A stretch of DNA of 64,000 bases, from IMG/VR virus record IMGVR_UViG_3300044630_006877. One strand, given 5' to 3'. Below are positions 2,922 through 36,200 of this stretch, piece after piece. The stretch comes from an uncultured virus (IMG/VR IMGVR_UViG_3300044630_006877). Its lineage: Duplodnaviria; Heunggongvirae; Uroviricota; Caudoviricetes. The first letter of the stretch is position 1. Each line of letters opens with the position of its first letter. The notes beneath the pieces were generated by a model. That model saw only the letters and a program-made list of their open reading frames with translations, was not told where the DNA came from and searched no databases. The position numbers were made by a program, and so were the translations under genes.

Positions 2922-2927
2922 TACACC
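2922..2927 (-). promoter_or_regulatory. putative late-promoter box GGTGTA
   Basis: GGTGTA-N9-GGAGG upstream of ATG 2898. Confidence 0.65.
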
Positions 2928-2928
2928 G

Positions 2929-3285: not shown

Positions 3286-5186
3286 GGCGTCACCGTGATC
3301 GGGGGATGGGCAACCCTATACCCAAGCTCGCAGGAATGACAGTTGGTTGACCAAATATTATTGACCCCATAAAGATCCCATAGTCTATATTTAAGTTTGA
3401 CATAAGCTCCATTGACTTTTTCCAAGAAGTAAAAATAAGGGCTGGTTTTTGTGTTGTCGTATCTGGAACTTAATTCAAAACGAGTCACCACCGGAGTAGA
3501 AACCGCATAGTGATATGAATAAGCGCTGGAGCGAGCTGGGCCAGTCACAAACGGATTGCATCGAATCGGTTCGTCTCGTAAATCAAGTGGCCAGTCCTGA
3601 TAGACGACATTGTCGTGCTTGTTTTTGAAATTGGCCGTACCTTGTTCACAAATATAGTAATAATCATATTCTGTGTTGTTGTACCAATTATACCAATAGT
3701 AATAGTATGGGTCGCCTATTTTCCAAGATTGAATAATAGAAGAACGCGGAACTATGTTTCCTTTATCGTCTTTGTAAAAATCCGGTATGACTGGGTTCTG
3801 TGGCTCTGCGTTGTAGTTCCCATCATCAATAAAAAATTCATAGACATAACTAAGATAATATTCTTGTTGTCCTTCGGGTATTCCGAAATCAATCGGCTCA
3901 CTATCTTTGTCAATCTTGTTAATGAGGTAATAGGAAGCGTCTGCGCTACCTAGCGAAAACTTACACTCAAGTAAGTCTTTGGTCGGGTTTACTCCAGAGC
4001 CGGTAAACGGTTCGTTGTAGCGGGCGTGAGCAAACATGTAATAGGTGGAGGCGTCTGCCTGTATTTCTGTGAAATTACCGCAGTTTGTGTAGGTGTAGGG
4101 AATGGGTTGAGTGTTTTCGTAGTCATAGAAGAGCGGAGTGGCCGCAGAAACCTGGGCGCTTTGTGAACCGAGACACTTCGTCACAACTGTGACATTAAGT
4201 GTGCCTGGTAAATTGCCGCCGCACGGCGGCAGAGAATCCTGCTCGTAGGCACACAAATCAAAATAGGTGTGCCCGCCCTTACCCCAGTACTTATCCAGAC
4301 TACGATTGGAATTTTGGTTATAGCCGTTATACCAGCCGTACCAGTAGTTGTAGTTGTAGTAGCCAGTATTTGGAAAAGGCCATTGACAATGGCCTGGCGT
4401 ATACGGTTCTTGATTGGAGCCAGGTAGAATCGCACCGCTTACATACATACCATACCAGTAACCACTCCATCCCCACCAATAATAATAGCCATCGTAGTTG
4501 CTGGAATAATCATATTCCTGAGAGCGAAGTTCGGCGCTTAACTTGCTTTTGGTGGAAACGCATTCTGGAATACCATTCTTGAAACGAATCACTACAAAAT
4601 TGACGTCGACATTCGCTGTCTTAAGAGGGTTCTCGGTGGGCCATTCGTCTAGATTAAACGGCAACGAGGAAAAGTTCAGATCCATGTCATTGTTGTTGGC
4701 TTGGAATGCGCCTTTGCCGATAGGTATGTACTGAGTGGATGAGTCGCCAAGAAACTCTGGTCCGTAATACCACGAGCCAGGAATATTCAATCTAGACATG
4801 GTTGCGACATCATTCAAGCATGGGCAACGCGTGGCGTTTACAAGCGGACCCAACACATCTGGGTTGGTGTAGTAGACCGCCCAGCCGTAATAGTGATTGT
4901 TCCAGTACCACCAGTAGTAATAGTTATTGTTATAGTCGTTGCGTTCAACCAGATGGGGGATCGGCAGATTTTGCCCATTCAGCTTCAAAGACAGGAAGCG
5001 TTCGGGGGATGAAAAATCAAAGTCCGGCAGGTATTTCCCCGTTGTCGAATTGTAAGTGCTGGATTCGCGCGCCCCAAATCGGACAAGAACAACATATTCG
5101 TATTCGCTGCCTGTGGGACTGGAATCACACCCCAGGCATTGGCTTGCACGATTGCAACAACACGGCCATCGCCCTTGACAACTCAT
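3282..5186 (-). CDS. Tyr/Trp- and Cys-rich protein, putative tail-tip/receptor-binding protein
   Basis: 634 aa; N-terminal CCC; repeated YYYWW-like tracts; translationally coupled to the tail-tip gene. Confidence 0.55.
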   Translation of the reverse strand: MSCQGRWPCCCNRASQCLGCDSSPTGSEYEYVVLVRFGARESSTYNSTTGKYLPDFDFSSPERFLSLKLNGQNLPIPHLVERNDYNNNYYYWWYWNNHYYGWAVYYTNPDVLGPLVNATRCPCLNDVATMSRLNIPGSWYYGPEFLGDSSTQYIPIGKGAFQANNNDMDLNFSSLPFNLDEWPTENPLKTANVDVNFVVIRFKNGIPECVSTKSKLSAELRSQEYDYSSNYDGYYYWWGWSGYWYGMYVSGAILPGSNQEPYTPGHCQWPFPNTGYYNYNYWYGWYNGYNQNSNRSLDKYWGKGGHTYFDLCAYEQDSLPPCGGNLPGTLNVTVVTKCLGSQSAQVSAATPLFYDYENTQPIPYTYTNCGNFTEIQADASTYYMFAHARYNEPFTGSGVNPTKDLLECKFSLGSADASYYLINKIDKDSEPIDFGIPEGQQEYYLSYVYEFFIDDGNYNAEPQNPVIPDFYKDDKGNIVPRSSIIQSWKIGDPYYYYWYNWYNNTEYDYYYICEQGTANFKNKHDNVVYQDWPLDLRDEPIRCNPFVTGPARSSAYSYHYAVSTPVVTRFELSSRYDNTKTSPYFYFLEKVNGAYVKLKYRLWDLYGVNNIWSTNCHSCELGYRVAHPPITVTP

Positions 5187-10268: not shown

Positions 10269-10876
10269 TAAGATATCTCCCTATATCCATCCGTAATCAG
10301 ATCAACAGAGTTTGTGCCCACACCAGTGCCTGCCGTGATCATGTCCAGAGACCCCGTAGATCCAACGGGGCCGACTAAATACAATACGCAGCCACCAGTG
10401 GCCTCTTGTGCATAGCCGGTCACTGTGAGCGGCAACACAGAAGAGGTCTCTGGCGTTCTCCAAACCACTAGGTTGAGGCCTGTGCCAAACACGGGCGCTT
10501 CGATAATCAGAGGTAGTGATTCGCTGACGATCTCGGTGGCGTTGTTGACAACGAGCAACGGCATGGAGTTTGAGACTGTCTGATTCGCCCCCTCCACAAA
10601 CAGGTTCATGTTTTGCTGGCTATCAGATATATTACAAAAGATATATAAGTTTATCCCTTGTCCATATATCTTGCCGCTGATGGTTAACGGCAAACCTTTG
10701 GCCACGCCGAAATTGACGCCGAGAGTATGCAAGGGCAGGGAGTTGCCGCCAGCAGGTATTTCCGGGCCTTTGAGGAATAGGTTGAGAGGCTCCCAAGTCA
10801 AGGATTCGCCGCCGAACCCGAGGACTAGCCCCCCGGGTGCGGCGAGCACATCTCCCAGTCTTCCGGTAAAGATCAT
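10268..10876 (-). CDS. virion protein with ~15-aa LPL/LNL repeats
   Basis: Repeated LPLxxxG / LNLFxxG units; coupled to the TMP stop. Confidence 0.55.
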   Translation of the reverse strand: MIFTGRLGDVLAAPGGLVLGFGGESLTWEPLNLFLKGPEIPAGGNSLPLHTLGVNFGVAKGLPLTISGKIYGQGINLYIFCNISDSQQNMNLFVEGANQTVSNSMPLLVVNNATEIVSESLPLIIEAPVFGTGLNLVVWRTPETSSVLPLTVTGYAQEATGGCVLYLVGPVGSTGSLDMITAGTGVGTNSVDLITDGYREIS

Positions 10877-13800
10877 TATTGCGACCTCTGCTCGACCGGC
10901 TGGTTAGCGCGGATGGCTTCGGCGATCATTGGCCCGATAGCTTCGGTGACCGCCTTGACGATTGAATCCTGACCCATCAGGTTGACGCTAATCTCATTGG
11001 CGCCGGACAGTTCGATCTGGCCGGGGATCTTGCCCACCGCCTCGTCGAACTTGTCGACAAAGGTGCCGAAGCTTGCCACGGCCCCGTTGAAGGTACTAAC
11101 CGAGGTGGAGAAGCCGGACAGTCCCTGGCTGATCTGAGTGGCGGCTTGGTTGAATTTGGCGGCGACGTCAAGAAGCTCAGGCCCACCACCCTGCGCCATT
11201 CCCCCGTTGGCGAATCCTTGGATGCCGCCCACGACTCCACCATTGGCGAATTTCTGGACGTGCTTCTTGGGGACGACCAGTTCTCCAGGTTCAAGCATGG
11301 CGGGGACGGTGTCTCCAGAACCAATACCGGGCACAATTCCGCCAGCGGCTTTCTTGGTTAAGTTGGCTTCGGCACTTTGTCTCATCCGAGCGGCTCGAAT
11401 CGCCTTGTCTATTTCTGTGCCGCCCTGATCCTGGGTTTTTTGTCGCTCCGCTTCCTTTCTTGCCCTTTCTTCTGCTATCGCTATATCCGCACCAGTCAAA
11501 CCTGGCTTTTGGGCTTCATTTAGTTCTTTTTGGCGCCTTATTTCTTTGTCTATCTGTGTTGGCCTCCCCATAGCAAACTTGCTTCTTTTCACGGGGTCGT
11601 CTGATTCAAAATCTGCATTTGACGCCAAGTATTCTCTTATAAATTTTTCTTTGTCGGAAATTCCTGGTTCATCAATTATCCTATCAGAAAATTTACTTTC
11701 TAATAATTTGTTGTAGCCTGTTAAATCAACGGGTGCTCCGTCACCTTTGGCGTATGATCTTTCCGCATGTACTCTGTGAAGCTCTGGGCCTTGGTATTTA
11801 GGAAGCCATGAATATTTTACATTTGGCCCCTCTGCTTGTTTTTTTTCGGCATATTTTAAACCTCTTGCTTCTTTTATTGCTTTGTCTACCGCTGTTAATT
11901 CTGATTCTTTTTTCGTCCCAAACTTGTTTTTATCAATATCTTCCAGCCTAGCTTTTTCAGCTGCTCGTACTTTTGCGTTATGTTCTTTTACGGCTTCTGG
12001 ACCGCTGATTTTTTCACCATATTTTTCTTTCATCTTTGCGTTATGTTCCGAAACAGCTTCTGGACCAGTAGGTTTCTTGCCGTACTTTTTCTCCATCGCT
12101 GTATTGTGCTCGGCAACGGCTTCTGGGCCATTTTTTATAACGCTATCATTTACTCTTCTATTGTGTGCTTGAACCGCTATTCGTTTTTCTTGCCATTCTC
12201 TTTCTATAATTTCATTATTTGCTGGCTTTTTTTCTTCAATCATCGCTGCCCGTAGGGCTTGTGGCGGAATCGACCTGGCAGCCAAAACGTACTCTTCATA
12301 CATTTCTTTTGCAAGAAGCCTGTCTTTGTAATTTGCTTTTGGGTTGTTCATTACTTGACGATGTCTTTTAGCCGCTTCCAGAAAATCCTTGGGGGACTCT
12401 TGGAATTTAGCCAATGCTTCTTGCGCACTCAACATTCTTTGCGCGGCGTCAGCCTGTACCACAAAAGGATTCGTCAGTTCGGCGTGAAGCTCTCGAAATT
12501 TAGCGATGTCTTCTTTGCTGCGAACCCTACTCTTTGTGAGCTTGTTTCGCAGCTGGTAATACTCAGTCTTTTTGTCGGCGAGAGCAAACCGATCGAGGTC
12601 TATTTTGTTAGCGCCCATAGCCTGTTGAAATTCTTGCTCGACCCCCATCTGATTCTGTGGGCCAGCGTGCAACGGAATGGCGCCAGCGTTCGCGTTGGCC
12701 CCAAAAGGCATCGCTTTGTTTTGCATGGCGCCTTGATTGATCGGCATCCCAGCAGCCCAAGGATTGGCGCCGTTAGGCATGAAAACCCACTGCCCATTTT
12801 GATTGGGGACGCCGCCACCAAATACTGCGGCGCCCTGAGCGTTTACCTTTTTCCCGCCGGGTTGGCCGCCCGGCACATCGCCTCCATAGAAGTAGCCAGG
12901 CAGCTTTCCGTTTTGGTTGATGTAGTCCAGCTTGCCCTTGCCTATCTTGGACGACTCGTCTGGCGTGAAGATATGTTCGCCAGGCATGACCATGGCCGGG
13001 ACGACACCGCCGGTGGCCATGTGCGGCAACGAGGCAAGGGTGTCAGCCCCTAGTTTGTTGACCGAGGATTTGCGAATCACATAGCTGCCTACCGGCAGAT
13101 TGGCGCGGACGGAGTCGGTGTTACCAACACCTGGAACTAAGCCGCCAGAGGCGAATTTGATGAGTCCGCCGTTGGCTTTTTTCTCTTTGCCGCCACCCAT
13201 TTCTCCCGCTTCGTTTGCGTCAAAAATTCCGGGCTTTTTGGGTTGAACTCCTGCGTCAGCAGGTTTGCCTCCAGTCAGGTTCTTGTCTTTGAATACGGCG
13301 AACACCCCAGGTATTTTAGTTGGCGTACCGAAGTGGCTCATCACCATCTCGATGAGCGCTGCTTCGTTGGCGTAAGCTTCCGCGCCCTTTTCTTCGGCGG
13401 CGGACATTCTGGCGTTGATCAGTCCGGGATTGGCAGACAGGAACTGTCCCATCCTGTTCAAGCCAGCACGATTTTTCTTGTCTTGAACTTGATCGTAGGC
13501 TTTTGTTTTTGCTTGACTTTCAAGAGAAATCAAATAAGCGTACTTTTCGGCTTCGTTTAAATTGCCTGGCTTTTTACCCTCGGAAACTTTCTCCATCATG
13601 ACTTCAAGATAAGCGCGCTGCAACAAAGAAAACTTGTTCTTGTCGCGCGCATAAATGGCTATTTCTTCGGAAGTTAAGTTGCCATCTTCCGCGAAACGAG
13701 GAAAATTAAATTGCTCCTTCTGATTAATATCAAGACCATTTTCTCTAATTGACGCCTTGAGAGGCTCAAGATATTTTGCTTGGAGGGCTGGATTCAACTG

Positions 13801-16800
13801 ATTGAACAATTCAGCTTCGCGAGCAAGGTTTTGCGCCTTGATAACTCCCAGCATATCTTTTCGACCCAATTCCATTGGGTTGATTGCGCCGACAGCTTTA
13901 CTTAATTGATCCTGTGGTGTTGAAAAAACCTTGATTCTTCTATCATTGACCTTTTTTTCAATTTCCTCTTTGGCCTTGACCATGCCAAAGTTCTTTTCTT
14001 TCTCTTTTTTTACTTCTTCCAATTGTGCGTTGATAACGCCCTTGATTGATTCTTCGTAATCAAACGCAATCGGCGGTATCAATGTTTTATTTCTGATAGC
14101 TTTAAAAGCTTCGTTTGTGTCTGCCATGAATTCCTGTTTGGTTGGTGATAAGGAATTGATGCCGCTTTGCCAGGCATTTTTCTCGAAGTGCTTTTCGATG
14201 TTGCCGCTGTAAATGTCCTTAATTATTTGAGCCTTATTCCTTTTTTGGCCTTTGACATTCCTTTTTTTCCGTGGGTCGTTGCGAAATTCTTCAATTTCAT
14301 TGGTGGTGTAAGTTATGCCATCGACCGTGCGAAATTGAGCAAAAACAGAATCAGGAATATTCTTATCCAATTTATCACCAAAAAAATGATCATATCTATC
14401 TTTATTTATTTTGATCAGACTCTGGCTAAGAACACTATCTCCAGTACCTATTAAAATGGCTTGATTTGAATCCCTGTAATTTTCATGATTTAGATTAAAT
14501 CTACCCGCCAATTTTTGACGAATATCTGGAATTTCTTGAATAATTTTTTCCTCATTGCCAATTCTTTCAGCCCCCGTCAAAGAAAGAGCTACGGCTCTAG
14601 CTTTCACAGCATCATGGATTTTTTCTGCGTCCGGCAGTAGATTTTGGTAAGCTGGGGCGTTTTTCTTTTCCTGAAACTCTTTTGTTTCTTTTTCGTAACT
14701 CTTTTGAAGTTCGCGTTTTTCCTTGATGTTGTTGAGAGCGTCAACTATCCCTTCCTGAAAAGGATTCTGTGGTCCATCCTTAAGAGTCTTGATTTGTTCG
14801 TCGATTAACTTTTCACGCTGATCCTTAGGCATGTCTTTCAGCTGCACAAGAAACATCGCGGCAGAATTGATTCGCGCAAGCCTTTTGGCCTCGTTGATCT
14901 CTTTCTCGCCGCCAATCATCTTGCCTTGCCGGGATAAAATGCTTTTGGCGTTATTCAAGTTGCCATAAATTTCGTCAACGATACCGCCGTCAGCCATCCC
15001 CACAAGGCCGCCGCCATTGATTTTCTCAAGAAGGTTTTTGTTCCTCTGGGCTGGACCAGCCGCGACCACGAACTCGTTTGGATTAATTCTGGCGTTGACG
15101 GTGTCGGCTCCGTGTGGGGTGGTGCTACCGCCACTGCCCCAGCCGCCCTTGTTGAAGAACCTAACCAGACCACCGTTCGCCTTTTTTTCTGGTTCGGCCA
15201 GCTTTTTTAATTTGTCTTTCGCTGCTTCAAGCTGTTTGCCAAAATCCTCAAATTTTCCACCGAAGGTTTCGACAGCTTTGATCGCGGTTTCCAAGTCAGC
15301 AAAATTCGACTTGCCGAATGCTTTTTCGGATTCCATCGCTATGTTATTGAGAATCTTTGGGTCTATCTTGGCGCCACCATTGTTTAACAATTTTCTTTCG
15401 GAAATATCAGACATCACCCGGGCGGTATTAGCTCGACCGCTAATAACATCCTTTAGAGTTACTCTTAGCGCTTCTTGAACGTCGTTGGTCCTGTCCTTAA
15501 ATTTGCCGCCACCCTTCTCGCCAAGGTTTATTTTAAACCTTTCAAAAACTTCTTTTTGGAGGTCGCCGCTGAGGCCCATATCCTCAAGGCGACGCAGAAC
15601 TACTCCCATGGAGGTCCCGCCTACAGTGCCAAGGTCTTGTCCGCCGATATCCCTATTGATGTTTTGAGAAAACAAATCCAACATTTCAGGTGTCGATATC
15701 TCTTTTAGTGTCGCATCAAGGCCAGCCGCCTCATTTCTTTTGGCGACCACTTGCTTGAGGTCGGCATTGATCTTGGGATTTTTTACCAGAGCCTTGAGCA
15801 CTTCAAACTGCTCGTTGTCTTTGATGCCGATATTACCCAACATCGACAATTCGCCGCCGCCCTTTTCGAGCTTGGAGACTTCTTCAGAAGCCCTCAGGAT
15901 GAGGGTTTGCTTCATCAGTTCGGCTGTTTCTTTGTTGATTTTCGCAAGCTCAGATAGGAATTTTGTCTGACTATTTTCCAATCTCCCAAACAGTTCAGAC
16001 ATCAAATTGGTCTGATTGTCCACTTGCAGTTGAGCCGCTCGGGATGCCACCTCGTAATTCTGCTGGACAAAATTCTCAAGCGCCCGCTCCATAGCGGCGG
16101 TTTGTGGGTCCAGACTGAAAGCGCCGCCGAATGTCGTGTCCAATAATTGCGAGGTGATATCCTTGACTGTGGCCCCACCCAGGCCTTGCAGGCGCATTTG
16201 CGGCGACAGCGAAGAGAGCAGGCTGAAGATTTGATTTTGATCGCGAGCTGTGAATGGCGCAGCCGTGCCCATTTTGGCGGCACTGCTCAACAGACCGAAC
16301 GCCTTGGCGATTTCGGCGCGACCCTCGATGTTCGAGGTGGCGTATCGCATCCCCAGAGACTGGCGTCCTTCCCGCTCATTTTGGATCTTGCCGAGCTTTT
16401 CTTGGGCAGCGGCATTGCGTTCGCTAGTGTCGGTCAAGTTTTTGAGGGCTTGATTGAGGTCTGCCGCCCTCCCTTTCAAATTAGCCAGTTCCGTTATGGC
16501 CTGATTGGAGGCGTTTATGTTCTTGCCTTTTGACAATTCGTCGACATTCCGCTCGGCCTTCTTGATTTTTGCCACGACTCCCTGAAGGGCGTCAAAGATC
16601 ATGTCTGGATTCTGAGCGTCGGCGACGGCTTGCTGATTGGGGAAAGCGTTCCCGTTGCCAAAATTGGTCAAGCGATTTTGACGCAGTTGCTGCTGACGCA
16701 GCGCCAGGTTAAAGATGTCGGTTTCAGCGGCTGATTCAGGAACTTGCCCGCGCTTGGCGGAAATTTGAACGCCATTGCGCACGGCGGCAATTTCAGCATC

Positions 16801-19800
16801 GTTGGCGGCATCCATCATCTCGCCCTTTTGGCGAGTCCTGCGGGCCATGTCGGCTATTTGATCGGCAAAGTCTTTCGCGCGATCATCCATCAGCTTTGAC
16901 ATTTTTTCTGAGTTGCGCGTCAATGGTTCGACAATTGGCTTGAGCAGGGTATCGACCATCTTGGTCATATCCTGCCCGCTTTCACGCAACATCTTGCTGA
17001 AATCTTCCTCGCCCAGTTGGCTTTGAACCATTCCAACAACAGAAGAAGAAACGCCTGCGTCCATACCTTTGGCAGTCAAGGCTTTTTGCAAAGTGTCGCC
17101 GACCTGGATGCCAAAGTTTTCACCCCTCGCCAGATTCGCCACTGGCTGAGAGCGGATGACTGCTATGATACCAGGAAGAAGCGTGCCAGCCATCGTGGCT
17201 GTTTCAGCCTGTTTGACAACGTCATCGTTATTTCCGGTGATGTCAGTGATGGTCTTGATGGCGTTGACAAAGTCTTCCCTGCCAGCCCCAAAAGGTTGCC
17301 GCAAAGACGAGGCCAGCCCAGACCCCATGAACGGTCCAATGTTGGAGTCCATTACGTCTGTGACATTTTTGCTGGCGGTCGACATCTCCATTAGCTTTTG
17401 CGTGGAAATTTCCAAGGCGGTGCTCAGATTGCCAAACAAAACAGCAGACTGATTAATTTTGGACGAAGACTGTTCCTGCTTGTTGCGAATAGCCTCGTTG
17501 TCGGCGATTCTCTTGAACATGTCAAGCATCTTCCCCCTGACGAGATTGATGTCCTGACCAGTGGCCGAAGCAATCTGACCCAGTTGAGCGCGGCCAAAAC
17601 CGCCATTTTCCATCAGAACATCATCAAACGCCTTCTTGCGGCTCTCCTCATTCATGTTGGCGCCGTTGCCAATTTCTTTTTTCGCCCGATCCTCGATAAT
17701 TTTACTTAGTGCATCCATCCTGGCTGGAACTTGCTGTGCCGCAGTTTCTTTACGGGCACTGAACACGCTATCTTGAAGTTCTCTATTTGAATAAAGCGGC
17801 ATATAAAAGGTCGAAAGCTGATTTGCCGCTTTTAGTGGCTGTTCCTTGTCGACGATGCTTTCCTGGTCTCGCAAATATCCAGCATTAAAATTGACAGTTC
17901 CCTTCGCAAAATTCATTAAGTATTCATCTATCTTTTTGATAGATTCGCCAATTTTTACATTTGATACTTCAATTTCTGCATCCTTCAGGGCGGACACGAA
18001 ACCAGCCAATCCGCCAACAACCCCTCCCAAGGCTCCCAGGATCATGGGGGCTTTTGAGTCTGGTCCACCTATGCTGTGTCCAGCAAAAGCACCAGAACCT
18101 ATGCCGGTTCCAATGCCAGAAATAGCGCCACCCAAACCTTTTTTATCCACAAAGGAACCGTCTTCTCCGCCTCGGGCAGCGTCCTCAGCATTTCCGGCGC
18201 TTCTTGAGACCGCGTCGCCAATATATGCTCCGGCTACGGAAATACCTGCTATGGCCATGTCCAAGTTCAGGAAGGTTTTCTTGAGCGATTCAAATGTTGT
18301 TTTGACAATATCGCCGATTGAGCTTTTTCCAGTTACTCCGGAGTCGAGCAATCCCTTGTCGTAAATTTTATTGCCTTTGCGAACGACCTTGGTGTTCTCG
18401 TCGATCGCCTTAATTCTCATTTCTTCAGCTATGATCAAGGCGTCGTCCATGCTTGTCAACTGGCGGGCTTTCTGAACTTGGCTAGAAATCGTTGTGAGAT
18501 ACTGATTTTTTATGTTTATTTCAGCCTCTTCCATAGCCCTCCGTTTGGACACGTCGCTAAGACCCATGCCTTTTGGGTCTTTCTTTTTGATAATGCTTTC
18601 GTATTCCGTAGCGACCAGATCCCCGTAGCTACCAGACGGTGGGCGGCTCGACCTGTTTGCGACGTTGGCGTCAACAACCTTGTTGCCAAGAGAATCAGTC
18701 TTGGTCATGACCAGGGTGTGGTTATGAAGATTCTTGTTGAACTCCTCGGTAGCGATTGCCCTGGCGGCTTCCAGACTATTGATCTTTCTTTCGGTCATGA
18801 TGATCTGCGCCATGCCGTCGGCGTATTCCCGGCGCAGTTTGTTGGTCTCTTCCTCGATCATCGCAGCCTTGGTGATCTCAGAAAGGCCCCTGCCGCCACC
18901 AATCGGGTCTATTTTAGCCATTGAGTCTGAAATGCGATTTTGACGCAGTTGGGCAAGCGTCAACCCGCCGCTCGGAAGTCCTGGAGGAGCTTCCGGTGGA
19001 CCTGCCCCATATCTTCCAGCATCTCCACCAAACCTAATCCCTTTTCTTCCCACGTCATCTTTAATAAAAGAGGCGTTCATTCCGTCAAAATCTTTCAATT
19101 GAACTTCAGCGTTTTTCCCGGCTTCTTTGGCCTGTTTTCCATAAGTTTCAGCCATCAATTGATTTTGAGTCATTCCACGAGATAAAGATTCTTTTGCGGC
19201 ATCGCGAATAGAAAATTTACCATTCTCATCAGACAAGTATTGTTTTTCTTCCAGGCCAGTCGCACTATTAATAGTTTTGACTGTTTCTTTTAGTTGATCC
19301 ATGGTTTTTTTAAGTTCTGGACCAACCGACGGATCAAGCCTGGATAATTCTTTCAATGAGTTGACTTTGTCAACAATGGCTGGTAAATTTTTAATTGAAT
19401 CAGAACGAAGTGAATATTCGCTTTGCAATGCTTGAGACTTAAATTGTTCGTCTTTTGTGTTTTTAAAATTATTGGCTTTGTCAAAAATATTGTTAGATTG
19501 TTCTTTGGCTAATCTTCTTCTCTCTCCTACGTCAAGATCAGGCCGTGTCGACTGCAAGCTTTCATAAATGCTTTTCTGTAGAAGTTTCTTGGTGTCTCTG
19601 TTTTTTGACATGTCGCCCAGAAGATTGGCAAAATCTTCTTGCTTCAATTCTTCTGTGACAGAAGCTCCAAAGCCGACTTTGTTTTTATTTTTGGCAATAT
19701 CGTTCAGCTCGCGCCCATAGTCACGAGTATTGTTTAGGACAACGCCATTTGGTGAGGTGATCTGTTTACTGGGGGCGGCCGGGTTCATTCCGACATCAAT

Positions 19801-22800
19801 GCCGGAAAAATTCACTCCGCGACGCCCACTGGCGTCTTTGGTTGTGATCGCCCTGATACCACTTAGCTTTTCCTTTTCTTCGTCGATGACCTTGTTGGCT
19901 TCTGATATATTTTCAGCAGCGGCGCGACCGATGCTGACAAGTTCACGATTTAGTTTTTTCAGAAGGGGTTCTACCGCATCGGAAATCTTGTATTGGCCAT
20001 TATCGATGTCGTAAATTGCGTTTGAATCAATTCCTTCATTTTTGGCGACTCGCTGTTTGACCGCATCCATCTTTTGAAGGACTTCGTCTCGCTGATTTTT
20101 GACGACCGGATCGTAGTCCGCCCTTTCTTTCAGGCTATTGGCTCGATTGGCATAAACATCCAATCGCTTCATGTCGGAAATGCGAGAGCTAGCTTGATTT
20201 TTAATGCCACTTTCGGCTTCGACGGTATCCTGAGCTTTGCGCATGGATTCTGCGCTAGAAAGAATATCACTGGCCCTTTTAGCGCTTTCAATTCTAGCGT
20301 CATTTGGAGATATGTCAGGTTTGTTAGCTGATATTTTTCTAAAGATGCTCTTTTCTAGGGCTTCAGCTCCACCAAGTGATTTACTGCTGGACATATCAGA
20401 CAAAAGATTAATGGTGTCTTGACTATTTAGTTTTTCGCGATTCATGGCGGTCGATGGATCATTGACGCCTAGATCATGGTGCCATTGTTTTCTTGGGTCA
20501 GGGCCTGAATTATCAATGCCGAGCGCGCTTGATCGATCAAGGATTGAGACTGGTGTCGTGGCAGGAGTTGATGCTGGGGTTTTAGAAGACCCTGGCGCTG
20601 GGGGTGTTACCCCGGCAGCGGCGTAGATGTCGGCCTTCAGCAAGGCTCCACCTTTGCCGCTACCAGTGATCGCATTGATATCAACGCCCAAGCTTTGCGC
20701 TAAACTTTGAATTGTTTTGTTGACAAACCTTTTTTTCTGCGGTGCTGTTGGCGACGACACAGAAGGCGTTGTGGGTGGTGGTGGTGGTGGTGGTATAGTT
20801 GCAGGCAATGGGTGGGGTGCAACCATTGTCAACGGCATTTTGACGGATGGCTTTGTGGGCGAGGGCGCTGGGGGTTTCTGTGCGGGCAGTGGCGCCATTT
20901 GCAAAGGCATTCTTGCGGGCTTAGGCGCCGTGGGCAAATCATCATCACGCAAGTTAAGGTCATCACCAAGCGAGAATGTCGGCGGTGACATTACAATATT
21001 ACCATGATCATCAAGCTCAAATTCAGCATATTGATTTTGAATTTCTTTAATCTCACGCTCGAGATCTTCGATTGATTTATCCGGATATCGGTCGCCAAAC
21101 GGGCTGCCACTGCCGCTGGATATCGGCGGTGTTGACGGTGGTGGCAGTTGTGGTTTGCCTGGCCTGGCGCCTTGCCTGCGGGGCTTTCTCGGAGAAACAG
21201 AAGGTTTGGAACCTTCATCCAAGTCGATCTCAATAAGACTGGCTACCTCTTTCCTAAAAGTTGCTTCAAGTTCTTGGGTTTGTTTATAGAATTGAGCGCG
21301 CTGTTTACTCGGAAGACTTGACCCCACGGTTTTTGTGAATTGGCTGTTGCCAGAAACGCCACCCTCCATAACACGAGCCAAAATTTCATCTGGGCTAGTG
21401 TAGTATTTAAGTGCTTCTTCCTTATCTCCACTTGAATGCTGGAGATATCCTTTTTCTACAGCCTTTCTTACATAGGACTGTAATAGCCTGGCTGCTTTAT
21501 TCGTCTGTGAGTTTTCGTTCTCACTTAAGAACTTGCTTCCGATGTCGCCTTTGTTCGCGCCCGGAAATCTTAATCCGGCCTGTCGATCAAGCAGATGAAT
21601 GATTTCATGCCCAAGAGTATTTATCTGACCAGTCTTGCTTTGATTAGCAAACGACATATCGGTCAAAGCGACCCTGTTACCCCTGGATCTTGAGTGAACG
21701 TACCCGTAGCTATCCTCTGATGGCATAGCGATTGTTCTTGAGCCTTTAATATCCGGCAAAATCGCCATCAGGTCTTGAAGGCCATGTTTTTCGATGGCTT
21801 GTTTTTCCATTTTGTTTAATAGATTGCGTACTTTTGGGTCCTTGTTTATATCAGCCGTAGCTTTTAAATTCGCGCCGACGTCATCGCTCATTGACATCGA
21901 AGACAATTTTCGTCTAGCCTTAGAATCATCATCTAGACCAATCATTTTTTTAAAAAAATCACCAATGCTAGAACCAGACTTAGGCTGTGTTCCATCGGCG
22001 AACTTTTCGAGGCTGCCACTATTAACAGAATTGAGGGTTGAAGAACCGATACTGGAGACTTGAGCGGGGGTGAAAATAAACTCGCCCGGCATCACCATGG
22101 CGGAAACCTTGCCGCCCCTGGCGTAGCCATTAGCGAGCGTGGACATGGCTTCGCGCCCATATTTGGCCACCGACGACTTGCGGACGACAAAAGATCCTGG
22201 TTGCAGATCTACCGGGACACTGTCGGTATTACCAGAGCCTGGAACAAGACCACCGGTAGCGAACTTCTTCTTGCCGGGAATTTGGGTGACGCCAGACGCC
22301 GCCTCCCGCAGAAATGGCGTGACGATAGAACCCAATTTGACCGCAGCAATCGCCGTCAGCAAAGGCAGGAGCGGGCGGGCTGCATCCAATACGCTGAGAA
22401 TACTCTTGGCCAAGCTCTCAAAACCCGAGAAGGCCCCCTTGAAGGTGTCGGTATTCATGACAGTACGGCCAAAAGCGGCGTAGCTCTCGCTCAACTTGGT
22501 CAACCTGTTGCCGTAGGAATCAGCGGCCTGGGCGGCATTTACCTGAAGGCTGACGCGTCCAGCCTCGGCGACCATCAAGGCCCGCTCGCTGACCGCGAAC
22601 TCCTTGAGCATCGGGATCACTTTGCCGATTTGCCGGTATCCGCCCAACTCCTCGCTGATGGAGGCAAACCGCGAGTCGCTTTCTGGGATTTGAGCCAGAG
22701 CTTGGGAGAGGCGATGAACAGCCTCGTAAGCACCGACGAACTGGTCGGTCAGCTTGATGTTGCCCATCTGCTCGGCTTCCGCTCTGGTGTAGCGAAGTTC

Positions 22801-23652
22801 GACGCCGATGCTCTTGAGCTGGCTGACCGTCTCGTTTCGTTGTAGGCGCGTGAAAATGGTTCGCAGGCCTGTGGAGATGCTTTCAGCCGATTCGCGGGTT
22901 GTCTGACGAACAGAGGTGAAGATAGCCATCAATTCATTGAGATCACCACCGCTGGCCTTGAACGCGCCGCCCGTGCGGCGAACCACCTCGATCAAGTCGC
23001 CGGCTTCAACGGCGAACTCGCCAGCCACCGCATTCATCGAACCCAGAGCCTGCTCCAGATCCTTGCTTTCGATCTTGAACTGATTCATCACCGCAATGGC
23101 GCCTTCGGTCGTTTGGGCCATTGAGTCAAAGTTGGGGGCTAGGGCAGACTTGGCAAGAGCCTCCAGCGCTATTCTTGTTTCATCGATTGAAAGGTTCGCC
23201 TGCTTCAGTACCACGGCGGTTTTGATCAACTCTTGGCTGGAAACACCAAAGCCAACAGACAACCGAGTCACTTCGGCAGCAATGGATTTGACCTCGCCGC
23301 CGACATCCATGGAGACCTGGCGCAGGCGCAACATCTCCTTGTCAAACGACAAGGCTTCGCTGGCGGCGCTACGGAAAGCCGAACCGAGCGCCATAACGGG
23401 ACCGGCAGCCAGACTGAAAGCGGCAAAACGCTTGAGGGCCAAACCGGACTGTTGCGCAAATTTAAGAACGGACGAATTGACGGTGTCGAGCTGGCTGCTC
23501 AATGATTTAATAGAAGCCGTATCGGCTTTAACCGGAATATTGACAGCGCCGACGCCAGAGCTGCGCAATCCAGAATTGATTTCACTTGCTATATTGCGAA
23601 TAGCACCTGAAGCAAGACGTAGATTAAGCTGTCCAGTTATATCAAATGCCAT
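10876..23652 (-). CDS. tape measure protein (4258 aa) with inserted cargo domains
   Basis: TP901-type TMP core at the N-terminus, Gly-rich hydrophobic segment ~17990-18260, position after tube and chaperones; start re-called to MAFDITGQ (ATG 23652). Confidence 0.9.
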   Translation of the reverse strand: MAFDITGQLNLRLASGAIRNIASEINSGLRSSGVGAVNIPVKADTASIKSLSSQLDTVNSSVLKFAQQSGLALKRFAAFSLAAGPVMALGSAFRSAASEALSFDKEMLRLRQVSMDVGGEVKSIAAEVTRLSVGFGVSSQELIKTAVVLKQANLSIDETRIALEALAKSALAPNFDSMAQTTEGAIAVMNQFKIESKDLEQALGSMNAVAGEFAVEAGDLIEVVRRTGGAFKASGGDLNELMAIFTSVRQTTRESAESISTGLRTIFTRLQRNETVSQLKSIGVELRYTRAEAEQMGNIKLTDQFVGAYEAVHRLSQALAQIPESDSRFASISEELGGYRQIGKVIPMLKEFAVSERALMVAEAGRVSLQVNAAQAADSYGNRLTKLSESYAAFGRTVMNTDTFKGAFSGFESLAKSILSVLDAARPLLPLLTAIAAVKLGSIVTPFLREAASGVTQIPGKKKFATGGLVPGSGNTDSVPVDLQPGSFVVRKSSVAKYGREAMSTLANGYARGGKVSAMVMPGEFIFTPAQVSSIGSSTLNSVNSGSLEKFADGTQPKSGSSIGDFFKKMIGLDDDSKARRKLSSMSMSDDVGANLKATADINKDPKVRNLLNKMEKQAIEKHGLQDLMAILPDIKGSRTIAMPSEDSYGYVHSRSRGNRVALTDMSFANQSKTGQINTLGHEIIHLLDRQAGLRFPGANKGDIGSKFLSENENSQTNKAARLLQSYVRKAVEKGYLQHSSGDKEEALKYYTSPDEILARVMEGGVSGNSQFTKTVGSSLPSKQRAQFYKQTQELEATFRKEVASLIEIDLDEGSKPSVSPRKPRRQGARPGKPQLPPPSTPPISSGSGSPFGDRYPDKSIEDLEREIKEIQNQYAEFELDDHGNIVMSPPTFSLGDDLNLRDDDLPTAPKPARMPLQMAPLPAQKPPAPSPTKPSVKMPLTMVAPHPLPATIPPPPPPPTTPSVSSPTAPQKKRFVNKTIQSLAQSLGVDINAITGSGKGGALLKADIYAAAGVTPPAPGSSKTPASTPATTPVSILDRSSALGIDNSGPDPRKQWHHDLGVNDPSTAMNREKLNSQDTINLLSDMSSSKSLGGAEALEKSIFRKISANKPDISPNDARIESAKRASDILSSAESMRKAQDTVEAESGIKNQASSRISDMKRLDVYANRANSLKERADYDPVVKNQRDEVLQKMDAVKQRVAKNEGIDSNAIYDIDNGQYKISDAVEPLLKKLNRELVSIGRAAAENISEANKVIDEEKEKLSGIRAITTKDASGRRGVNFSGIDVGMNPAAPSKQITSPNGVVLNNTRDYGRELNDIAKNKNKVGFGASVTEELKQEDFANLLGDMSKNRDTKKLLQKSIYESLQSTRPDLDVGERRRLAKEQSNNIFDKANNFKNTKDEQFKSQALQSEYSLRSDSIKNLPAIVDKVNSLKELSRLDPSVGPELKKTMDQLKETVKTINSATGLEEKQYLSDENGKFSIRDAAKESLSRGMTQNQLMAETYGKQAKEAGKNAEVQLKDFDGMNASFIKDDVGRKGIRFGGDAGRYGAGPPEAPPGLPSGGLTLAQLRQNRISDSMAKIDPIGGGRGLSEITKAAMIEEETNKLRREYADGMAQIIMTERKINSLEAARAIATEEFNKNLHNHTLVMTKTDSLGNKVVDANVANRSSRPPSGSYGDLVATEYESIIKKKDPKGMGLSDVSKRRAMEEAEINIKNQYLTTISSQVQKARQLTSMDDALIIAEEMRIKAIDENTKVVRKGNKIYDKGLLDSGVTGKSSIGDIVKTTFESLKKTFLNLDMAIAGISVAGAYIGDAVSRSAGNAEDAARGGEDGSFVDKKGLGGAISGIGTGIGSGAFAGHSIGGPDSKAPMILGALGGVVGGLAGFVSALKDAEIEVSNVKIGESIKKIDEYLMNFAKGTVNFNAGYLRDQESIVDKEQPLKAANQLSTFYMPLYSNRELQDSVFSARKETAAQQVPARMDALSKIIEDRAKKEIGNGANMNEESRKKAFDDVLMENGGFGRAQLGQIASATGQDINLVRGKMLDMFKRIADNEAIRNKQEQSSSKINQSAVLFGNLSTALEISTQKLMEMSTASKNVTDVMDSNIGPFMGSGLASSLRQPFGAGREDFVNAIKTITDITGNNDDVVKQAETATMAGTLLPGIIAVIRSQPVANLARGENFGIQVGDTLQKALTAKGMDAGVSSSVVGMVQSQLGEEDFSKMLRESGQDMTKMVDTLLKPIVEPLTRNSEKMSKLMDDRAKDFADQIADMARRTRQKGEMMDAANDAEIAAVRNGVQISAKRGQVPESAAETDIFNLALRQQQLRQNRLTNFGNGNAFPNQQAVADAQNPDMIFDALQGVVAKIKKAERNVDELSKGKNINASNQAITELANLKGRAADLNQALKNLTDTSERNAAAQEKLGKIQNEREGRQSLGMRYATSNIEGRAEIAKAFGLLSSAAKMGTAAPFTARDQNQIFSLLSSLSPQMRLQGLGGATVKDITSQLLDTTFGGAFSLDPQTAAMERALENFVQQNYEVASRAAQLQVDNQTNLMSELFGRLENSQTKFLSELAKINKETAELMKQTLILRASEEVSKLEKGGGELSMLGNIGIKDNEQFEVLKALVKNPKINADLKQVVAKRNEAAGLDATLKEISTPEMLDLFSQNINRDIGGQDLGTVGGTSMGVVLRRLEDMGLSGDLQKEVFERFKINLGEKGGGKFKDRTNDVQEALRVTLKDVISGRANTARVMSDISERKLLNNGGAKIDPKILNNIAMESEKAFGKSNFADLETAIKAVETFGGKFEDFGKQLEAAKDKLKKLAEPEKKANGGLVRFFNKGGWGSGGSTTPHGADTVNARINPNEFVVAAGPAQRNKNLLEKINGGGLVGMADGGIVDEIYGNLNNAKSILSRQGKMIGGEKEINEAKRLARINSAAMFLVQLKDMPKDQREKLIDEQIKTLKDGPQNPFQEGIVDALNNIKEKRELQKSYEKETKEFQEKKNAPAYQNLLPDAEKIHDAVKARAVALSLTGAERIGNEEKIIQEIPDIRQKLAGRFNLNHENYRDSNQAILIGTGDSVLSQSLIKINKDRYDHFFGDKLDKNIPDSVFAQFRTVDGITYTTNEIEEFRNDPRKKRNVKGQKRNKAQIIKDIYSGNIEKHFEKNAWQSGINSLSPTKQEFMADTNEAFKAIRNKTLIPPIAFDYEESIKGVINAQLEEVKKEKEKNFGMVKAKEEIEKKVNDRRIKVFSTPQDQLSKAVGAINPMELGRKDMLGVIKAQNLAREAELFNQLNPALQAKYLEPLKASIRENGLDINQKEQFNFPRFAEDGNLTSEEIAIYARDKNKFSLLQRAYLEVMMEKVSEGKKPGNLNEAEKYAYLISLESQAKTKAYDQVQDKKNRAGLNRMGQFLSANPGLINARMSAAEEKGAEAYANEAALIEMVMSHFGTPTKIPGVFAVFKDKNLTGGKPADAGVQPKKPGIFDANEAGEMGGGKEKKANGGLIKFASGGLVPGVGNTDSVRANLPVGSYVIRKSSVNKLGADTLASLPHMATGGVVPAMVMPGEHIFTPDESSKIGKGKLDYINQNGKLPGYFYGGDVPGGQPGGKKVNAQGAAVFGGGVPNQNGQWVFMPNGANPWAAGMPINQGAMQNKAMPFGANANAGAIPLHAGPQNQMGVEQEFQQAMGANKIDLDRFALADKKTEYYQLRNKLTKSRVRSKEDIAKFRELHAELTNPFVVQADAAQRMLSAQEALAKFQESPKDFLEAAKRHRQVMNNPKANYKDRLLAKEMYEEYVLAARSIPPQALRAAMIEEKKPANNEIIEREWQEKRIAVQAHNRRVNDSVIKNGPEAVAEHNTAMEKKYGKKPTGPEAVSEHNAKMKEKYGEKISGPEAVKEHNAKVRAAEKARLEDIDKNKFGTKKESELTAVDKAIKEARGLKYAEKKQAEGPNVKYSWLPKYQGPELHRVHAERSYAKGDGAPVDLTGYNKLLESKFSDRIIDEPGISDKEKFIREYLASNADFESDDPVKRSKFAMGRPTQIDKEIRRQKELNEAQKPGLTGADIAIAEERARKEAERQKTQDQGGTEIDKAIRAARMRQSAEANLTKKAAGGIVPGIGSGDTVPAMLEPGELVVPKKHVQKFANGGVVGGIQGFANGGMAQGGGPELLDVAAKFNQAATQISQGLSGFSTSVSTFNGAVASFGTFVDKFDEAVGKIPGQIELSGANEISVNLMGQDSIVKAVTEAIGPMIAEAIRANQPVEQRSQ
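11965..12135 (-). repeat. three tandem 21-aa repeats (GPEAVxEHN...KYG) in TMP
   Basis: GPEAVAEHNTAMEKKYG / GPEAVSEHNAKMKEKYG / GPEAVKEHNAKV. Confidence 0.85.
19025..20430 (-). repeat. two diverged ~210-aa tandem repeats in TMP
   Basis: Both copies share NLLxDMS..KSI..PD..NSLKE..DPxV..NG..IxDA..KDxxGRxGxxFxG. Confidence 0.7.
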
Positions 23653-23663
23653 ATTAACCCCGC

Positions 23664-23713
23664 GAAATAAAAGGACGGTGGTCCCCACTCACAAAGAGCA
23701 AAGACCACCGCCC
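23664..23713 (-). terminator. long hairpin + U tract immediately upstream of the TMP gene
   Basis: Minus strand GGGCGGTGGTCTTTGCTC-TTTGT-GAGTGGGGACCACCGTCC-TTTTATTT. Confidence 0.75.
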
Positions 23714-31941: not shown

Positions 31942-32922
31942 CTACAAGCCAAATCGGCTTTTTATCCTGCTGAATAAATAGGCGACTTGGTTGTCTGTGA
32001 ACACACTGTTGTAAAACCCTAGGTGTGTTATGTAGGCGTTCGTCAACGGGTAAGAGGTCAGTTGGGTCGATCCCGTGGCCCCACCCCTGGCAATCTGGAG
32101 CGTGGAGTGGGTAACGGCTGATCCGAAGGATTCCGTCCCCTTCTTGACCCCGTCGATGTAGACCGTCTGGGTTTTAGTCGAGAACTTGTAGGTTAAAGTG
32201 AACATGTGCCAGCCATTGCGAATGCTGGCCGTCGTGGCCCAGTTTAGCCCGCCCCCGGCCCCGTTGTTTGTCCAAGACCGGATGTTCGCCCCCGTCCCGC
32301 TTGTCGCAATGGCAAATCCATTCCAGCTGGTATCCCAGGTTGAAAGAATCCCCTGTTCGGTGGCATTGTTGCTGATGTAATACATCCAGAAATTGACGCT
32401 GAAATCGGCGCTGTTGGTCAGGCCGCAGTTGGCGTAGGCGTAGGAAGCGGCGCCATCGAAAATGAAATAGCCGTCGTTATTGACGGAATAGGTGGGGCTG
32501 CTGATGAAGGTTCCGTCGTTGCCGCTGTAGCTCAGGTCGTTCCAGGTTCCGCTGTTGGGGCCAAAATTGGTGGCGTACTGATCCAGGAATAGGGTCGCCC
32601 CCACGCAGTTAAACACATCGACATTCTGGAAAGTCTGCCCCGTCACAAAGGTGCCGTCGATGGCAGACTGTATGGTGTTGTCAGCAATAGTGACCGTGAT
32701 AATGTCGCCGGGTGAAATGCTCACTCCGCTCAGGGTGAAGACCACGGCCTCGTCGTTGTAGGCGGGGTCGGCTGTGGCTAAGGTCAGAGAAGCATTGACT
32801 GGGGCGGCGGTCGTCGTGGTCGGAGTTAGGGTCGTCGTTGTGGTTGTCGTGGTCGTGGTCGTAACCCCGACAGTCGTGGTCGATGTCGTTGTCGTGGTTG
32901 TTGGGGACGCTGTTCCGGACAT
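31942..32922 (-). CDS. LamG/ConA-like lectin-domain protein with N-terminal poly-Thr tract
   Basis: TWNDLSYSGNDGT...FDG...WHMFTLTY...YIDG; N-terminal Thr runs. Confidence 0.8.
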   Translation of the reverse strand: MSGTASPTTTTTTSTTTVGVTTTTTTTTTTTLTPTTTTAAPVNASLTLATADPAYNDEAVVFTLSGVSISPGDIITVTIADNTIQSAIDGTFVTGQTFQNVDVFNCVGATLFLDQYATNFGPNSGTWNDLSYSGNDGTFISSPTYSVNNDGYFIFDGAASYAYANCGLTNSADFSVNFWMYYISNNATEQGILSTWDTSWNGFAIATSGTGANIRSWTNNGAGGGLNWATTASIRNGWHMFTLTYKFSTKTQTVYIDGVKKGTESFGSAVTHSTLQIARGGATGSTQLTSYPLTNAYITHLGFYNSVFTDNQVAYLFSRIKSRFGL

Positions 32923-33225: not shown

Positions 33226-36200
33226 TTAAGCTACGCGCCAACCGGCTGCTCCAGAACCGTTGTTGGTTGCGTCGTAAATGAGTTCTGCGAAGTCGTTAGC
33301 TGCGATGATAATGTCTACCGACTGAACACAAAACATCCTGTTGGCTTGAGTTGTGCCAGTTGTGTAGTTGTGTTTTAAAGTCAAATTGAATGAGCCTACA
33401 TTGTAGATTCTGATCATCCTGCCATCGACATGAGAACCTCCAGAAGGAGGCGCTATGCTAAATATGTTTCTTGCTGCTGTGCCGCTCAGGCGTTGAAACG
33501 CTGAGCCGCTAAGGGCTAAATCGGTCTGATCACCTGTATAGCCCCCAGGACTGCTGCTGGTGAAAGCAAAAGAGCCGCCGCCTGTCGAGGCGTTACTTAC
33601 CCTAATCTGACCCGTGCTACCGTTTTCAATAGCCGCTGTCGGAACATTGCTTGGAAATTGAAGCTTGGGGTTAATTACGGCAAACTGCGCGTAGGCATTG
33701 GCGTATATTGAACCGACATTTGCTAGGGTATTGCTGTTGCAATCTAAGCTGGCTCCTAATGTTAAAAAAGCACTAGACACTGACAACACAGTAGTGCCGG
33801 TTGAATTTTTTAAAGCAAAAGCAGCTCCAGACTGAGTGGTAATAGTAAGGGTGCTTGAATCTGTACTAAATTTAGATATAGCTGTGCCTGCGCTACTATT
33901 GAAAGTAATGGTGCCGTTGCCACCACTCGTAACCTGAGCACCTGGCTGCAAAATGATAGAGCCGCCAGCACCTGTGGTTGCGGCAGAACCGGCGACGACA
34001 GTAAAATTGCCGCCAACCCCAGTACCCATGCCCGTTCCAGCGGACAGAGTAACACCAGTGCCATTTCCGGATGATCCAGGAGGATCAACAGCGGTCATGG
34101 TTGGCTGCAAACGATTGCTTAGTCTATAGTCAGTAATATAGCTATTAGCAATTGCTGATGTCCCTGTTCCTGTTCTTTCGTCTAAAGAGAAAGAGCCGCT
34201 GCCGCCGCCGCCGTAACTATAAAATTGCTCAATTAGCACTGAAGCAATAGCTGATGTAGTCCCCTTACTGCGTCTAAGACGAAGCACGGCAGTTCCCGCC
34301 GCCTCATAAAAAATTTCAAGCTCGCAATCATGCGTGGGATTTGTGCTTTGGTTTATGGGTGGGACAATGCCGGAAAGACTAAGCTGATAATTGTTAAACA
34401 AGTAAGATTTGTTAATTCCAGATTCGCCTGGACCCCAACCAACAACAACATGTACTCTGAATGTGCTTATGCCGTAGTTCGCAAAACGAGTTAATTCAAC
34501 ATAATCACCAACGACATTCGGAAGAGTCCTAGCAAAAGATTTTCTTAGTGTGTAATTGCTACTCAAAAGAGTGGTACTGGCTGTGGGAAAACTAGCATTG
34601 CCCGAAGAGTCTATGGAGGAAAGAACAGTTCCTCCGGTGTTCTGCCACTCTTGCAAGTTCGCACTCTGCGAGGCTGCACCACGAACGACCAAGCCCTTAG
34701 TGGCGTTGCTTGTCGGCGCAACATAAGCTTGACCACCGCCAGCAGCAGTCGTGGCCCCAAATGCAACGCTGCCACCAGTAAAGTATGATGTTCCATTTGG
34801 ATTCAATAAAACATTGGCCGTTAAAGCAGTTGGGTGCAGCAGGGCAAATATATTTTTGCTTGCATCTCCTAAATAGGCAGAATACTTACCATCTGCCGAA
34901 AAGTATATCGTGTTGTCTGACTTCAAAGTTGGATATGAGCCGTTGGCATAGCCTGGCAGGTCGCCAGTCATGGCTAAGTAGCCGTAAGTGTAGTTGCCAG
35001 CTCTGACATTGCCGATGACATGGAGCTTGTCGGAAGGGGAAGTCGTGCCGATACCAACCGATCCGACATCGGGTTGAAGAGCAAGATTTATGGCGCCAAT
35101 AGCATTTTCATAAGCCTTAATAAAAGCATAGTTGCTAGTGTGAACGCCACAAGTTAGACGGAAGCGGTCGTTGGTGCTAGCCCGCTTGATCATCAACTGA
35201 CCGGTAGCACTACTAGAAGCGTCGGCAGTAATGTCAAGACCCGGCGACGTGGAAACGGGGCTGGTGCCACCAACACAGACCCTCCCACCGTTAGCTTGCA
35301 AAATTACATCGCCGAAGTTGGAACCGTAAGCTCCGGCGAAGCCGGTGCCGCCCTGGATGAACACCCGCCCGCCAGTTTTGCCTGCGGCGTTATCGGACTT
35401 GCCACCCAGCAACATGATGTCGCGACCAGAACCGGAGTTTTGATCAGCAGGAGTCTGTCCGCCCGCCCCTTCCGGCATCAAAACAACACGAGCTGTGTAG
35501 TATTCACCAAACTTGATAATAGTGGTTGTGCCGGTAGCAAGTGTTGCTGTTCCACCGTTGCCGCCATCGGTGAAGAATGCGGTCACGCGGGCGTGGGTCT
35601 GGGTGTCCGGCTCGTAGGTTGGCCAGGCCGCAATAGCGGTAGCTACGGCAGTCGTCGGGCGGGTGACGTGCAGTGGAGCACCAGGCCCCGAAGGGAAATA
35701 GGTTGCGTTAGGAACGCCGACAGCAAGGTCGCCAGTTGGATCTACATAGACTAGATTTGTACCCGAACTGTTTTGGACTTCAAGGATGTTCGCCGTCGGC
35801 GTAGCCGCCGCCTTGACAATGAGACCCTTCGTTCCCGCCGCCCCTGTGTCGATTTGGAGCTTTGCTCCGGGCGAAGTATTGCCGATGCCAACATTACCAG
35901 ATGTGTCAATTCGCATACGCTCAGCTGCCGCAGCTGATGTGGAGCCTGTCGTAAAACGAGTGCCTATTGCTCCGAATCCACCAAGAACAAATCCGTTTGA
36001 GTTGGCGTAAAGAGTACCTGACACAACATTGCCATAATTCAGCTCGACACCGGCATCTGTTGAGCCGTTTATGGAAACCGTTCTCGTTCCGCCAATTTGA
36101 TTTAGCGTTGTTGTGCCAATTCCGATATGTGATCCGCTGTCATAAATCAGCGAATTACCCACCACATTTGCGCTAGTAAATTTCGGAACATACGAAGCAG

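Follow-up and report, generated by a model that had tools for sequence, protein, structure and literature searches.

The 64,000-nucleotide stretch of DNA analyzed here (the window, by which we mean the whole stretch) belongs to an uncultured Caudoviricetes virus (IMG/VR record IMGVR_UViG_3300044630_006877) and encodes a giant tape measure protein (TMP), in which a small peripheral subunit-binding domain (PSBD) is embedded. PSBDs correspond to the Pfam family E3_binding and, to our knowledge, their sole established role is to attach E1 and E3 (dihydrolipoamide dehydrogenase) to the E2 core in complexes of central metabolism. The 4270-aa open reading frame (ORF) is a phage tail TMP, as judged by its matches to the Pfam family PhageMin_Tail and to the PHROG family phrog_4211, annotated as 'tail length tape measure protein'; in addition, a source gives the name 'TP901 family phage tail tape measure protein' to a 99.9% identical database copy. 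PhageMin_Tail and E3_binding are the only Pfam families found in the 4270 residues; the same scan revealed neither a lipoyl nor a 2-oxoacid_dh catalytic domain, and the protein is thus not an E2 chain. The ORF begins with a GTG codon, whereas the true start of the TMP is likely the ATG at position 23652, which gives a product of 4258 aa, equal to the database protein P0003. The latter is the window's own TMP from Met13 onwards, present in a public protein collection; P0003 and another database protein, P0153, are both 4258 aa long and had their TMP name given by a source.

Family membership and predicted fold of the embedded domain

A preliminary description of the window had placed a PSBD-like peptide at positions 20613-20730, inside the TMP and between proline-rich linkers, and all of these points hold. 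The peptide is encoded on the minus strand (the plus-strand translation is full of stop codons) and reads RFVNKTIQSLAQSLGVDINAITGSGKGGALLKADIYAAA, that is, the peptide as first described plus one leading Arg. It lies within the same ORF that carries the PhageMin_Tail and phrog_4211 matches, and each of its two flanking linkers contains about 30% proline, compared with 4.2% across the whole TMP (Table 1).

The family assignment proposed for this peptide is borne out by the E3_binding profile (PF02817), which has a curated (gathering) cut-off of 23.7 bits and scores 26.7 bits (E 6.6e-6) against the whole protein and 34.6 bits (E 2.3e-8) against the peptide alone; relaxing the threshold to E<=10 brings up no other Pfam family for the peptide. 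Comparison of a 79-aa piece with all PDB chain sequences by phmmer gave significant matches to E2 PSBDs exclusively, headed by pyruvate dehydrogenase (PDH) E2 chains or isolated PSBDs (6zzl_A, 5.5e-6; 3duf_I, 6.2e-6; then 1w3d, 1w85, and 1ebd, among others). A reverse search, in which 49 aa were used to query 1.84 billion representative proteins, returned 182 matches at E<=1e-3. Among the best 150 of them, 147 were scanned with Pfam, the others being two spidroin-like proteins and the window's own P0003, and E3_binding was found in 143 of the 147. By our reading, 95 of these 143 carriers also have lipoyl and/or E2 catalytic domains and 46 show E3_binding alone, many of the latter being short fragments; the remaining carriers are a Ser/Thr kinase with three PSBDs and a protein with an E1 fragment. 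The scanned matches without E3_binding, three ankyrin proteins and one TPR protein, were rejected as spurious, as they match half of the query and owe their score to repetition. The two spidroin-like repeat proteins were judged spurious by eye, since half of the query matches them many times over.

At the level of individual residues, an alignment of 24 PSBD sequences shows that the window's domain keeps all five invariant columns, namely the 'LA' alanine, the three glycines of G-x-G-x-x-G, and the aspartate, and the PSBD signature LA...G(V/I)D...G(S/T)G..G...D is present in the peptide. On the basis of these comparisons and of the structural model described below, residues 987-1025 truly belong to the PSBD/E3_binding family.

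The AlphaFold2 model built from the 24-sequence alignment has the two-helix PSBD-like fold expected from the preliminary description, with helices that span model residues 17-26 and 44-51 and are connected by a short turn, a mean pLDDT of 80.8, and block means of 82-94 over residues 11-50. When the model was compared with the PDB by Foldseek, 32 of the 35 matches listed were PSBD-bearing chains, and the best superpositions gave 0.6-1.4 Å over 36-42 residues with a target-normalised TM score of up to 0.94; the corresponding E-values are weak (0.03), owing to the very small size of the domain. A Foldseek comparison of the same model with the viral models in BFVD gave no credible match (best E 2.3).

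Among characterized structures, the PSBD of Geobacillus stearothermophilus PDH E2 (PDB 3DUF, 1W85, 1W3D, and 1EBD) offers a direct comparison. The window's domain shares with it a length of about 35 residues, the succession of helix, 3-10 turn, loop, and helix (as modelled for the window), the G-x-G-x-x-G loop, the Asp, the hydrophobic core, and Pro/Ala-rich flanking linkers, at 33-39% identity in the Foldseek alignments. It differs from E2 PSBDs in its carrier, which is a virion tape measure devoid of lipoyl and catalytic domains, and from the Geobacillus PSBD in the residues of three Arg columns and in a helix 1 that has no basic residue.

The basic docking surface

According to the HMMER alignment, the Arg columns of the Geobacillus stearothermophilus PSBD (3duf_I and 1w85_I; ...sVRkyaRekG...nGRv...) are occupied in the window by Gln, Gln, and Ala, which agrees with the earlier remark that the usual start of the domain and the Arg of GGR are substituted. 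We take the three arginines to be R135, R139, and R156, and to act in the complexes with E3 and E1. The frequency of such replacements was assessed in 238 PSBD segments that were extracted from the 143 carriers with a regular expression, PSBDs not fitting this expression being missed. The first column (R135) holds Arg or Lys in 199 of the 238 segments, the second column (R139) in 67, and the third column (R156) in 144, with Ala in another 49. A basic residue is lacking from all three columns in 15 segments, and there are just four segments, plus the window, with no Arg or Lys over the nine residues of helix 1. The basic patch for E1/E3 docking, composed of the helix-1 Arg and the GGR Arg, is not found in the window's domain; as far as the aligned residues tell, the usual surface that grips E1 and E3 is missing. 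With the basic helix-1 surface gone, the partner has most likely changed, or the binding mode is non-electrostatic.

The preliminary description had gone further and suggested that the injected protein might mimic E2 and bind or sequester host E1/E3, altering central metabolism at entry. This suggestion is not supported by our analysis, although it is not refuted either: Q, Q, and A stand in the three Arg columns, a helix 1 without any basic residue occurs in only 4 of the 238 segments, and the domain has a counterpart in only one of nine related viral records (see below). Moreover, a virion contains only a few TMP copies, and a metabolism-altering sequestration of the host enzyme would therefore be quantitatively implausible even if docking took place. 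A search of the literature on phage proteins binding PDH and on the arginines of PSBD/E3 found nothing usable; a preprint mentioning PF02817 concerns folding fragments only.

Variable cargo region and PSBDs in other proteins

The N-terminal 1200 residues of the TMP have relatives with 49-74% identity at 10 IMG/VR loci on nine contigs, all of which lie inside very long open frames, the longest being 4759 aa; one of the related records is 145 kb long, with its completeness rated at 97%. An alignment of seven TMPs places the PSBD segment in a hypervariable part of the protein. A six-frame scan of nine related viral records with PF02817 produced a match in only one of them (L001), where a PSBD-like segment scoring 25.6 bits is encoded in the 4759-aa frame, at a different position in the TMP; the loop of this segment is longer and its Gly motif degenerate. 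A word-based search among giant proteins with residues 975-1040, in which 124 candidates were scored, returned only the window's own protein, and tblastn of the 79-aa PSBD piece against 50,697 GenBank phage records gave no match at E<=0.1.

On the N-terminal side of the PSBD linker, the TMP contains another small module, which is zincin-like at the motif level only and includes the HExxH motif HEIIH. This motif is found in three of the seven aligned TMPs (those of the window, L001, and L007) and is absent from the other four; in the alignment of the three modules, T..HE..H..D..AG and Y...P.EILA are invariant. The module has no Pfam match, a profile search against PDB sequences found nothing, and its AlphaFold2 model from the three-sequence alignment has a pLDDT of 45.3 and is unusable. 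Going by its motifs, the module may be a small zinc-dependent peptidase. Taken together, the hypervariability, the presence of HExxH in three of seven TMPs, and that of the PSBD in one of nine relatives point to a cargo region in which small modules come and go.

PSBDs were also found in viral contigs outside the TMP context. A scan of IMG/VR for small PSBDs, with an alignment of four PSBD sequences as query, identified two contigs (L012 and L013), each encoding a small protein whose C-terminal half is a strong PSBD; both genes are located just upstream of an ORF with a lysin-like PG_binding_1 domain. The stand-alone family comprises at least 54 clusters (P0164-P0217) of 49-87 aa, all of them metagenomic, with the consensus YYEDIsTTGAAAeLAaELGVDLStVeGTGKgGrITKADVEAAA. 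Of the 44 members parsed, 42 have Ala in the first Arg column and 42 have Arg or Lys in the third. Like the window's domain, these viral proteins represent PSBDs in a phage context without the helix-1 Arg, and they are 50-60% identical to the window's core; unlike it, they are free proteins of 49-87 aa with a conserved N-terminal extension, retain the Arg/Lys of GGR, have a PG_binding_1 neighbor, and are situated outside a TMP. Since these members lack the helix-1 Arg, phage-borne Arg-less PSBDs are not unique to the window's TMP; furthermore, a spacer role alone cannot account for the domain in a free protein of about 80 aa.

The window's domain has its closest real relative in a 134-aa metagenomic protein (P0040), which scores 42.6 bits with Pfam E3_binding and shows 59% identity over 39 residues. 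It shares with the window the tail AAGVTPP and the Ala at the GGR position; however, it keeps the helix-1 Arg and its C-terminal half is unrelated. P0040 comes from a single 2.7-kb metagenome contig, and a search of viral contigs found no locus for it. Other non-E2 settings of PSBDs (P0005, P0007, P0008, P0037, and P0104) include a Ser/Thr kinase with three C-terminal PSBDs, proteins of three to four tandem PSBDs, and an acidic protein in which two PSBDs are joined to an Arc/SAP-like tail. PHROGs searched with 20 non-E2 PSBD carriers and the window's peptide gave no informative family, and tblastn of P0042 and P0030 against phages gave no match. A weak tblastn match in the 'UNVERIFIED' Pseudomonas phage Y12 (OQ572413.1) was rejected as it corresponds to an entire E2 gene and not to a phage PSBD protein. 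In this record, the complete gene for the E2 acyltransferase and an E1-beta-like ORF lie in high-GC DNA, which is probably host DNA within the record.

Table 1. Features of the TMP, of the rest of the window, and of other records discussed in the text (residues are those of the 4270-aa ORF; positions are those of the window unless another record is named).
Feature	Residues	Positions	Strand	Remarks
TMP gene		10876..23688	-	ORF of 4270 aa from GTG; Pfam and PHROG matches
PhageMin_Tail domain	142-340	22669..23265	-	Pfam E 1.2e-20, 74.7 bits, cut-off 33.2
HExxH (zincin-like) module	590-810	21259..21921	-	Motif level only
HEIIH	694-698	21595-21609	-	HExxH motif
Conserved P.EILA		21376-21393	-	In HExxH module
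N-side Pro-rich linker	905-986	20731..20976	-	Pro 30.5%; C-terminal basic run QKKR
PSBD / E3_binding mini-domain	987-1025	20614..20730	-	Pfam-matched core 995-1021, positions 20626-20706
C-side Pro/Thr/Ala-rich linker	1026-1046	20551..20613	-	Pro 28.6%, Thr 23.8%
GG(L/I)VPGxGxxD(S/T)V copies	479, 3515, 4116	22009-22254, 12889-13146, 11209-11343	-	phrog_35029 matches three stretches
Gly-rich hydrophobic stretch (mid-TMP)	1812-1901	17986..18255	-	Densest 60-residue window 72% G/A/V/L/I/F/M
Laminin_G_3 proteins and two ORFs of ~1500 aa, in series		31942-32922, 37891-41310, 33226-37857, 41300-45814	-	Concanavalin-like lectin; F5/8 type C domain in one of the two ~1500-aa ORFs
Intein-containing ORF		56926-60315	-	1129 aa; LAGLIDADG_3 and Intein_splicing domains
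ERCC4-like nuclease ORF and sigma-70 region 2 ORF		60236-60736, 61612-62172	-	ERCC4-like match just under cut-off
Small PSBD protein		L012: 2928-3170	+	80 aa; 52.7 bits
Small PSBD protein		L013: 69-410	+	113 aa from listed TTG start; 51.3 bits
E2 acyltransferase gene		L014 (OQ572413.1): 2773-3885		Complete gene

Possible role of the domain and other features of the window

We tentatively interpret the window's PSBD as a docking module that was captured and is held on tethers in the TMP's variable cargo region, beside the HExxH module, and whose partner or binding mode is altered. The domain would have been captured together with its E2-style Pro-rich tethers into the cargo stretch of a giant siphovirus-type TMP. 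As a tethered protein-docking bead, it would be carried along with the rest of the TMP inside the tail lumen and would become exposed once the TMP is expelled at infection. With the fold residues kept and the basic helix-1 surface lost, its partner may have changed or its binding may be non-electrostatic; presumably, it would not act by titrating host E1/E3.

TMPs occupy the tail tube, fix the tail length, and aid the transit of DNA into the cell, as outlined in an excerpt of PMC5099701. Small modules embedded in them have a precedent: many mycobacteriophage TMPs hold small motifs similar to host proteins, one of which enhances the infection of cells in stationary phase (Piuri and Hatfull, 2006; PMC1796659). 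As presented in an excerpt of that paper, these motifs (the Rpf-like motif 1 and motifs 2 and 3) resemble the window's PSBD in being small host-like modules within a long TMP that are dispensable across the family and variable between phages; they are, however, related to cell-wall hydrolases and act on peptidoglycan, whereas the PSBD stems from a cytoplasmic metabolic complex and is non-catalytic. A literature search found no paper on a PSBD within a TMP.

Several points weigh against the docking module proposed here. The patchy conservation of the PSBD, with one carrier among nine relatives, would suit a functionless passenger equally well. The only close homologue of the TMP is 99.9% identical and has no change within the domain, so that it yields no measure of selection. 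The AlphaFold2 model leans towards the PSBD fold because a PSBD alignment was its input. Real E2 chains frequently carry Ala at the GGR position as well (49 of the 238 segments), and the basic run KKRFVNK, immediately ahead of helix 1, might replace the missing charges and thereby allow canonical E3/E1 docking. In addition, a search of 185,579 species genomes found no relative of the TMP and hence gave no clue to the host.

Among the alternatives, it is conceivable, though rather unlikely, that a small self-folding domain with its linkers, functionless or purely structural, was gained by recombination and is tolerated because the central parts of TMPs can take up insertions that do no more than lengthen the tail. 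Such an origin would fit a hypervariable region in which modules come and go among relatives, the presence of the PSBD in one of nine related records, the failure to find a similar segment in any other giant protein among the 124 candidates scored, and the loss of the canonical binding residues. However, every fold-determining residue is kept even though the identity to any E2 is only about 40%, which suggests that the fold is maintained rather than decaying. The tiny stand-alone proteins on phage contigs also retain PSBDs where a spacer role is impossible, and a second TMP, in the L001 record, bears a PSBD-like segment at another position. We regard as improbable the mechanism put forward in the preliminary description, in which the ejected domain docks on host E3 or E1 and disturbs or uses the 2-oxoacid dehydrogenase complexes. 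It has on its side the known function of the family, the presentation of the domain on E2-like flexible tethers, the occurrence of the GG-Ala variant in many real E2 chains (49 of the 238 segments), the basic run just upstream of helix 1, and the largely hydrophobic contacts through which human E3BP binds E3; against this, all three Arg columns are replaced, the absence of basic residues from helix 1 is shared with 4 of 238 segments, the domain is not conserved in relatives, and the few TMP copies in a virion cannot titrate an abundant enzyme.

That the resemblance arose by chance or convergence, the helix-loop-helix being merely PSBD-like (for example, an ankyrin-like or HeH-like motif), is hardly credible. 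It is true that ankyrin, TPR, and spidroin-like repeat proteins were also among the matches of the query, that the Pfam match spans profile positions 9-35 of 36 with the start missing, and that the Foldseek E-values of 0.03 are weak, as expected for so small a domain. The repeat proteins, however, cover half of the query and score by repetition, the peptide alone reaches a Pfam E-value of 2.3e-8 with no competing family at E<=10, 143 of the 147 scanned reverse matches carry a PSBD, and the best PDB matches by both sequence and fold are PSBDs only.

A wider scheme, highly speculative and in our opinion decidedly improbable, would have phages keep their own Arg-poor PSBD lineage, embedded in the TMPs of the window and of the L001 record and free in the proteins of about 80 aa. 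Its members would dock non-electrostatically on the E3/E1 hub of the host's 2-oxoacid dehydrogenase complexes or on another conserved host protein, where the window's PSBD might anchor the ejected TMP or deliver the HExxH module at the time of DNA entry.

Returning to the tethered docking module, a preserved PSBD in a virion protein would represent a new use of the domain if it is expelled into the host, and also a new kind of host-derived TMP module, as the known embedded TMP motifs are cell-wall hydrolases. If the domain binds a host protein, it would provide a handle on what the N-terminal part of the ejected TMP meets in the cell; if it binds nothing, it would show giant TMPs growing by uptake of small fast-folding domains. 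Together, the window's PSBD and the stand-alone viral PSBD proteins point to an unstudied phage use of this domain.

The TMPs concerned are extreme in length, with 4270 aa in the window and an open frame of 4759 aa in the L001 record. As the tail usually rises by about 1.5 Å per TMP residue, these lengths imply tails of roughly 0.6-0.7 micrometre. The motif GG(L/I)VPGxGxxD(S/T)V ... AM(V/L)xPGE is present in three copies in the window's TMP, and its N-terminal copy is kept in all relatives. From its composition, the Gly-rich hydrophobic stretch in the middle of the protein may be a membrane-inserting glycine zipper; weak Gly-zipper Pfam matches were observed in L007.

The window represents a divergent phage with essentially every gene on the minus strand. 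The neighbors of the TMP gene are on the same strand throughout and have no family match, and no tRNA was found in the window. Further along, a series of lectin-like Laminin_G_3 proteins and two large ORFs probably encodes receptor-binding or decoration proteins; a Toxin_R_bind_N match of one protein in this series reflects the same lectin-like fold. An intein-containing ORF was also observed, and an ERCC4-like nuclease ORF and a sigma-70 region 2 ORF are located near the right end of the window (Table 1).

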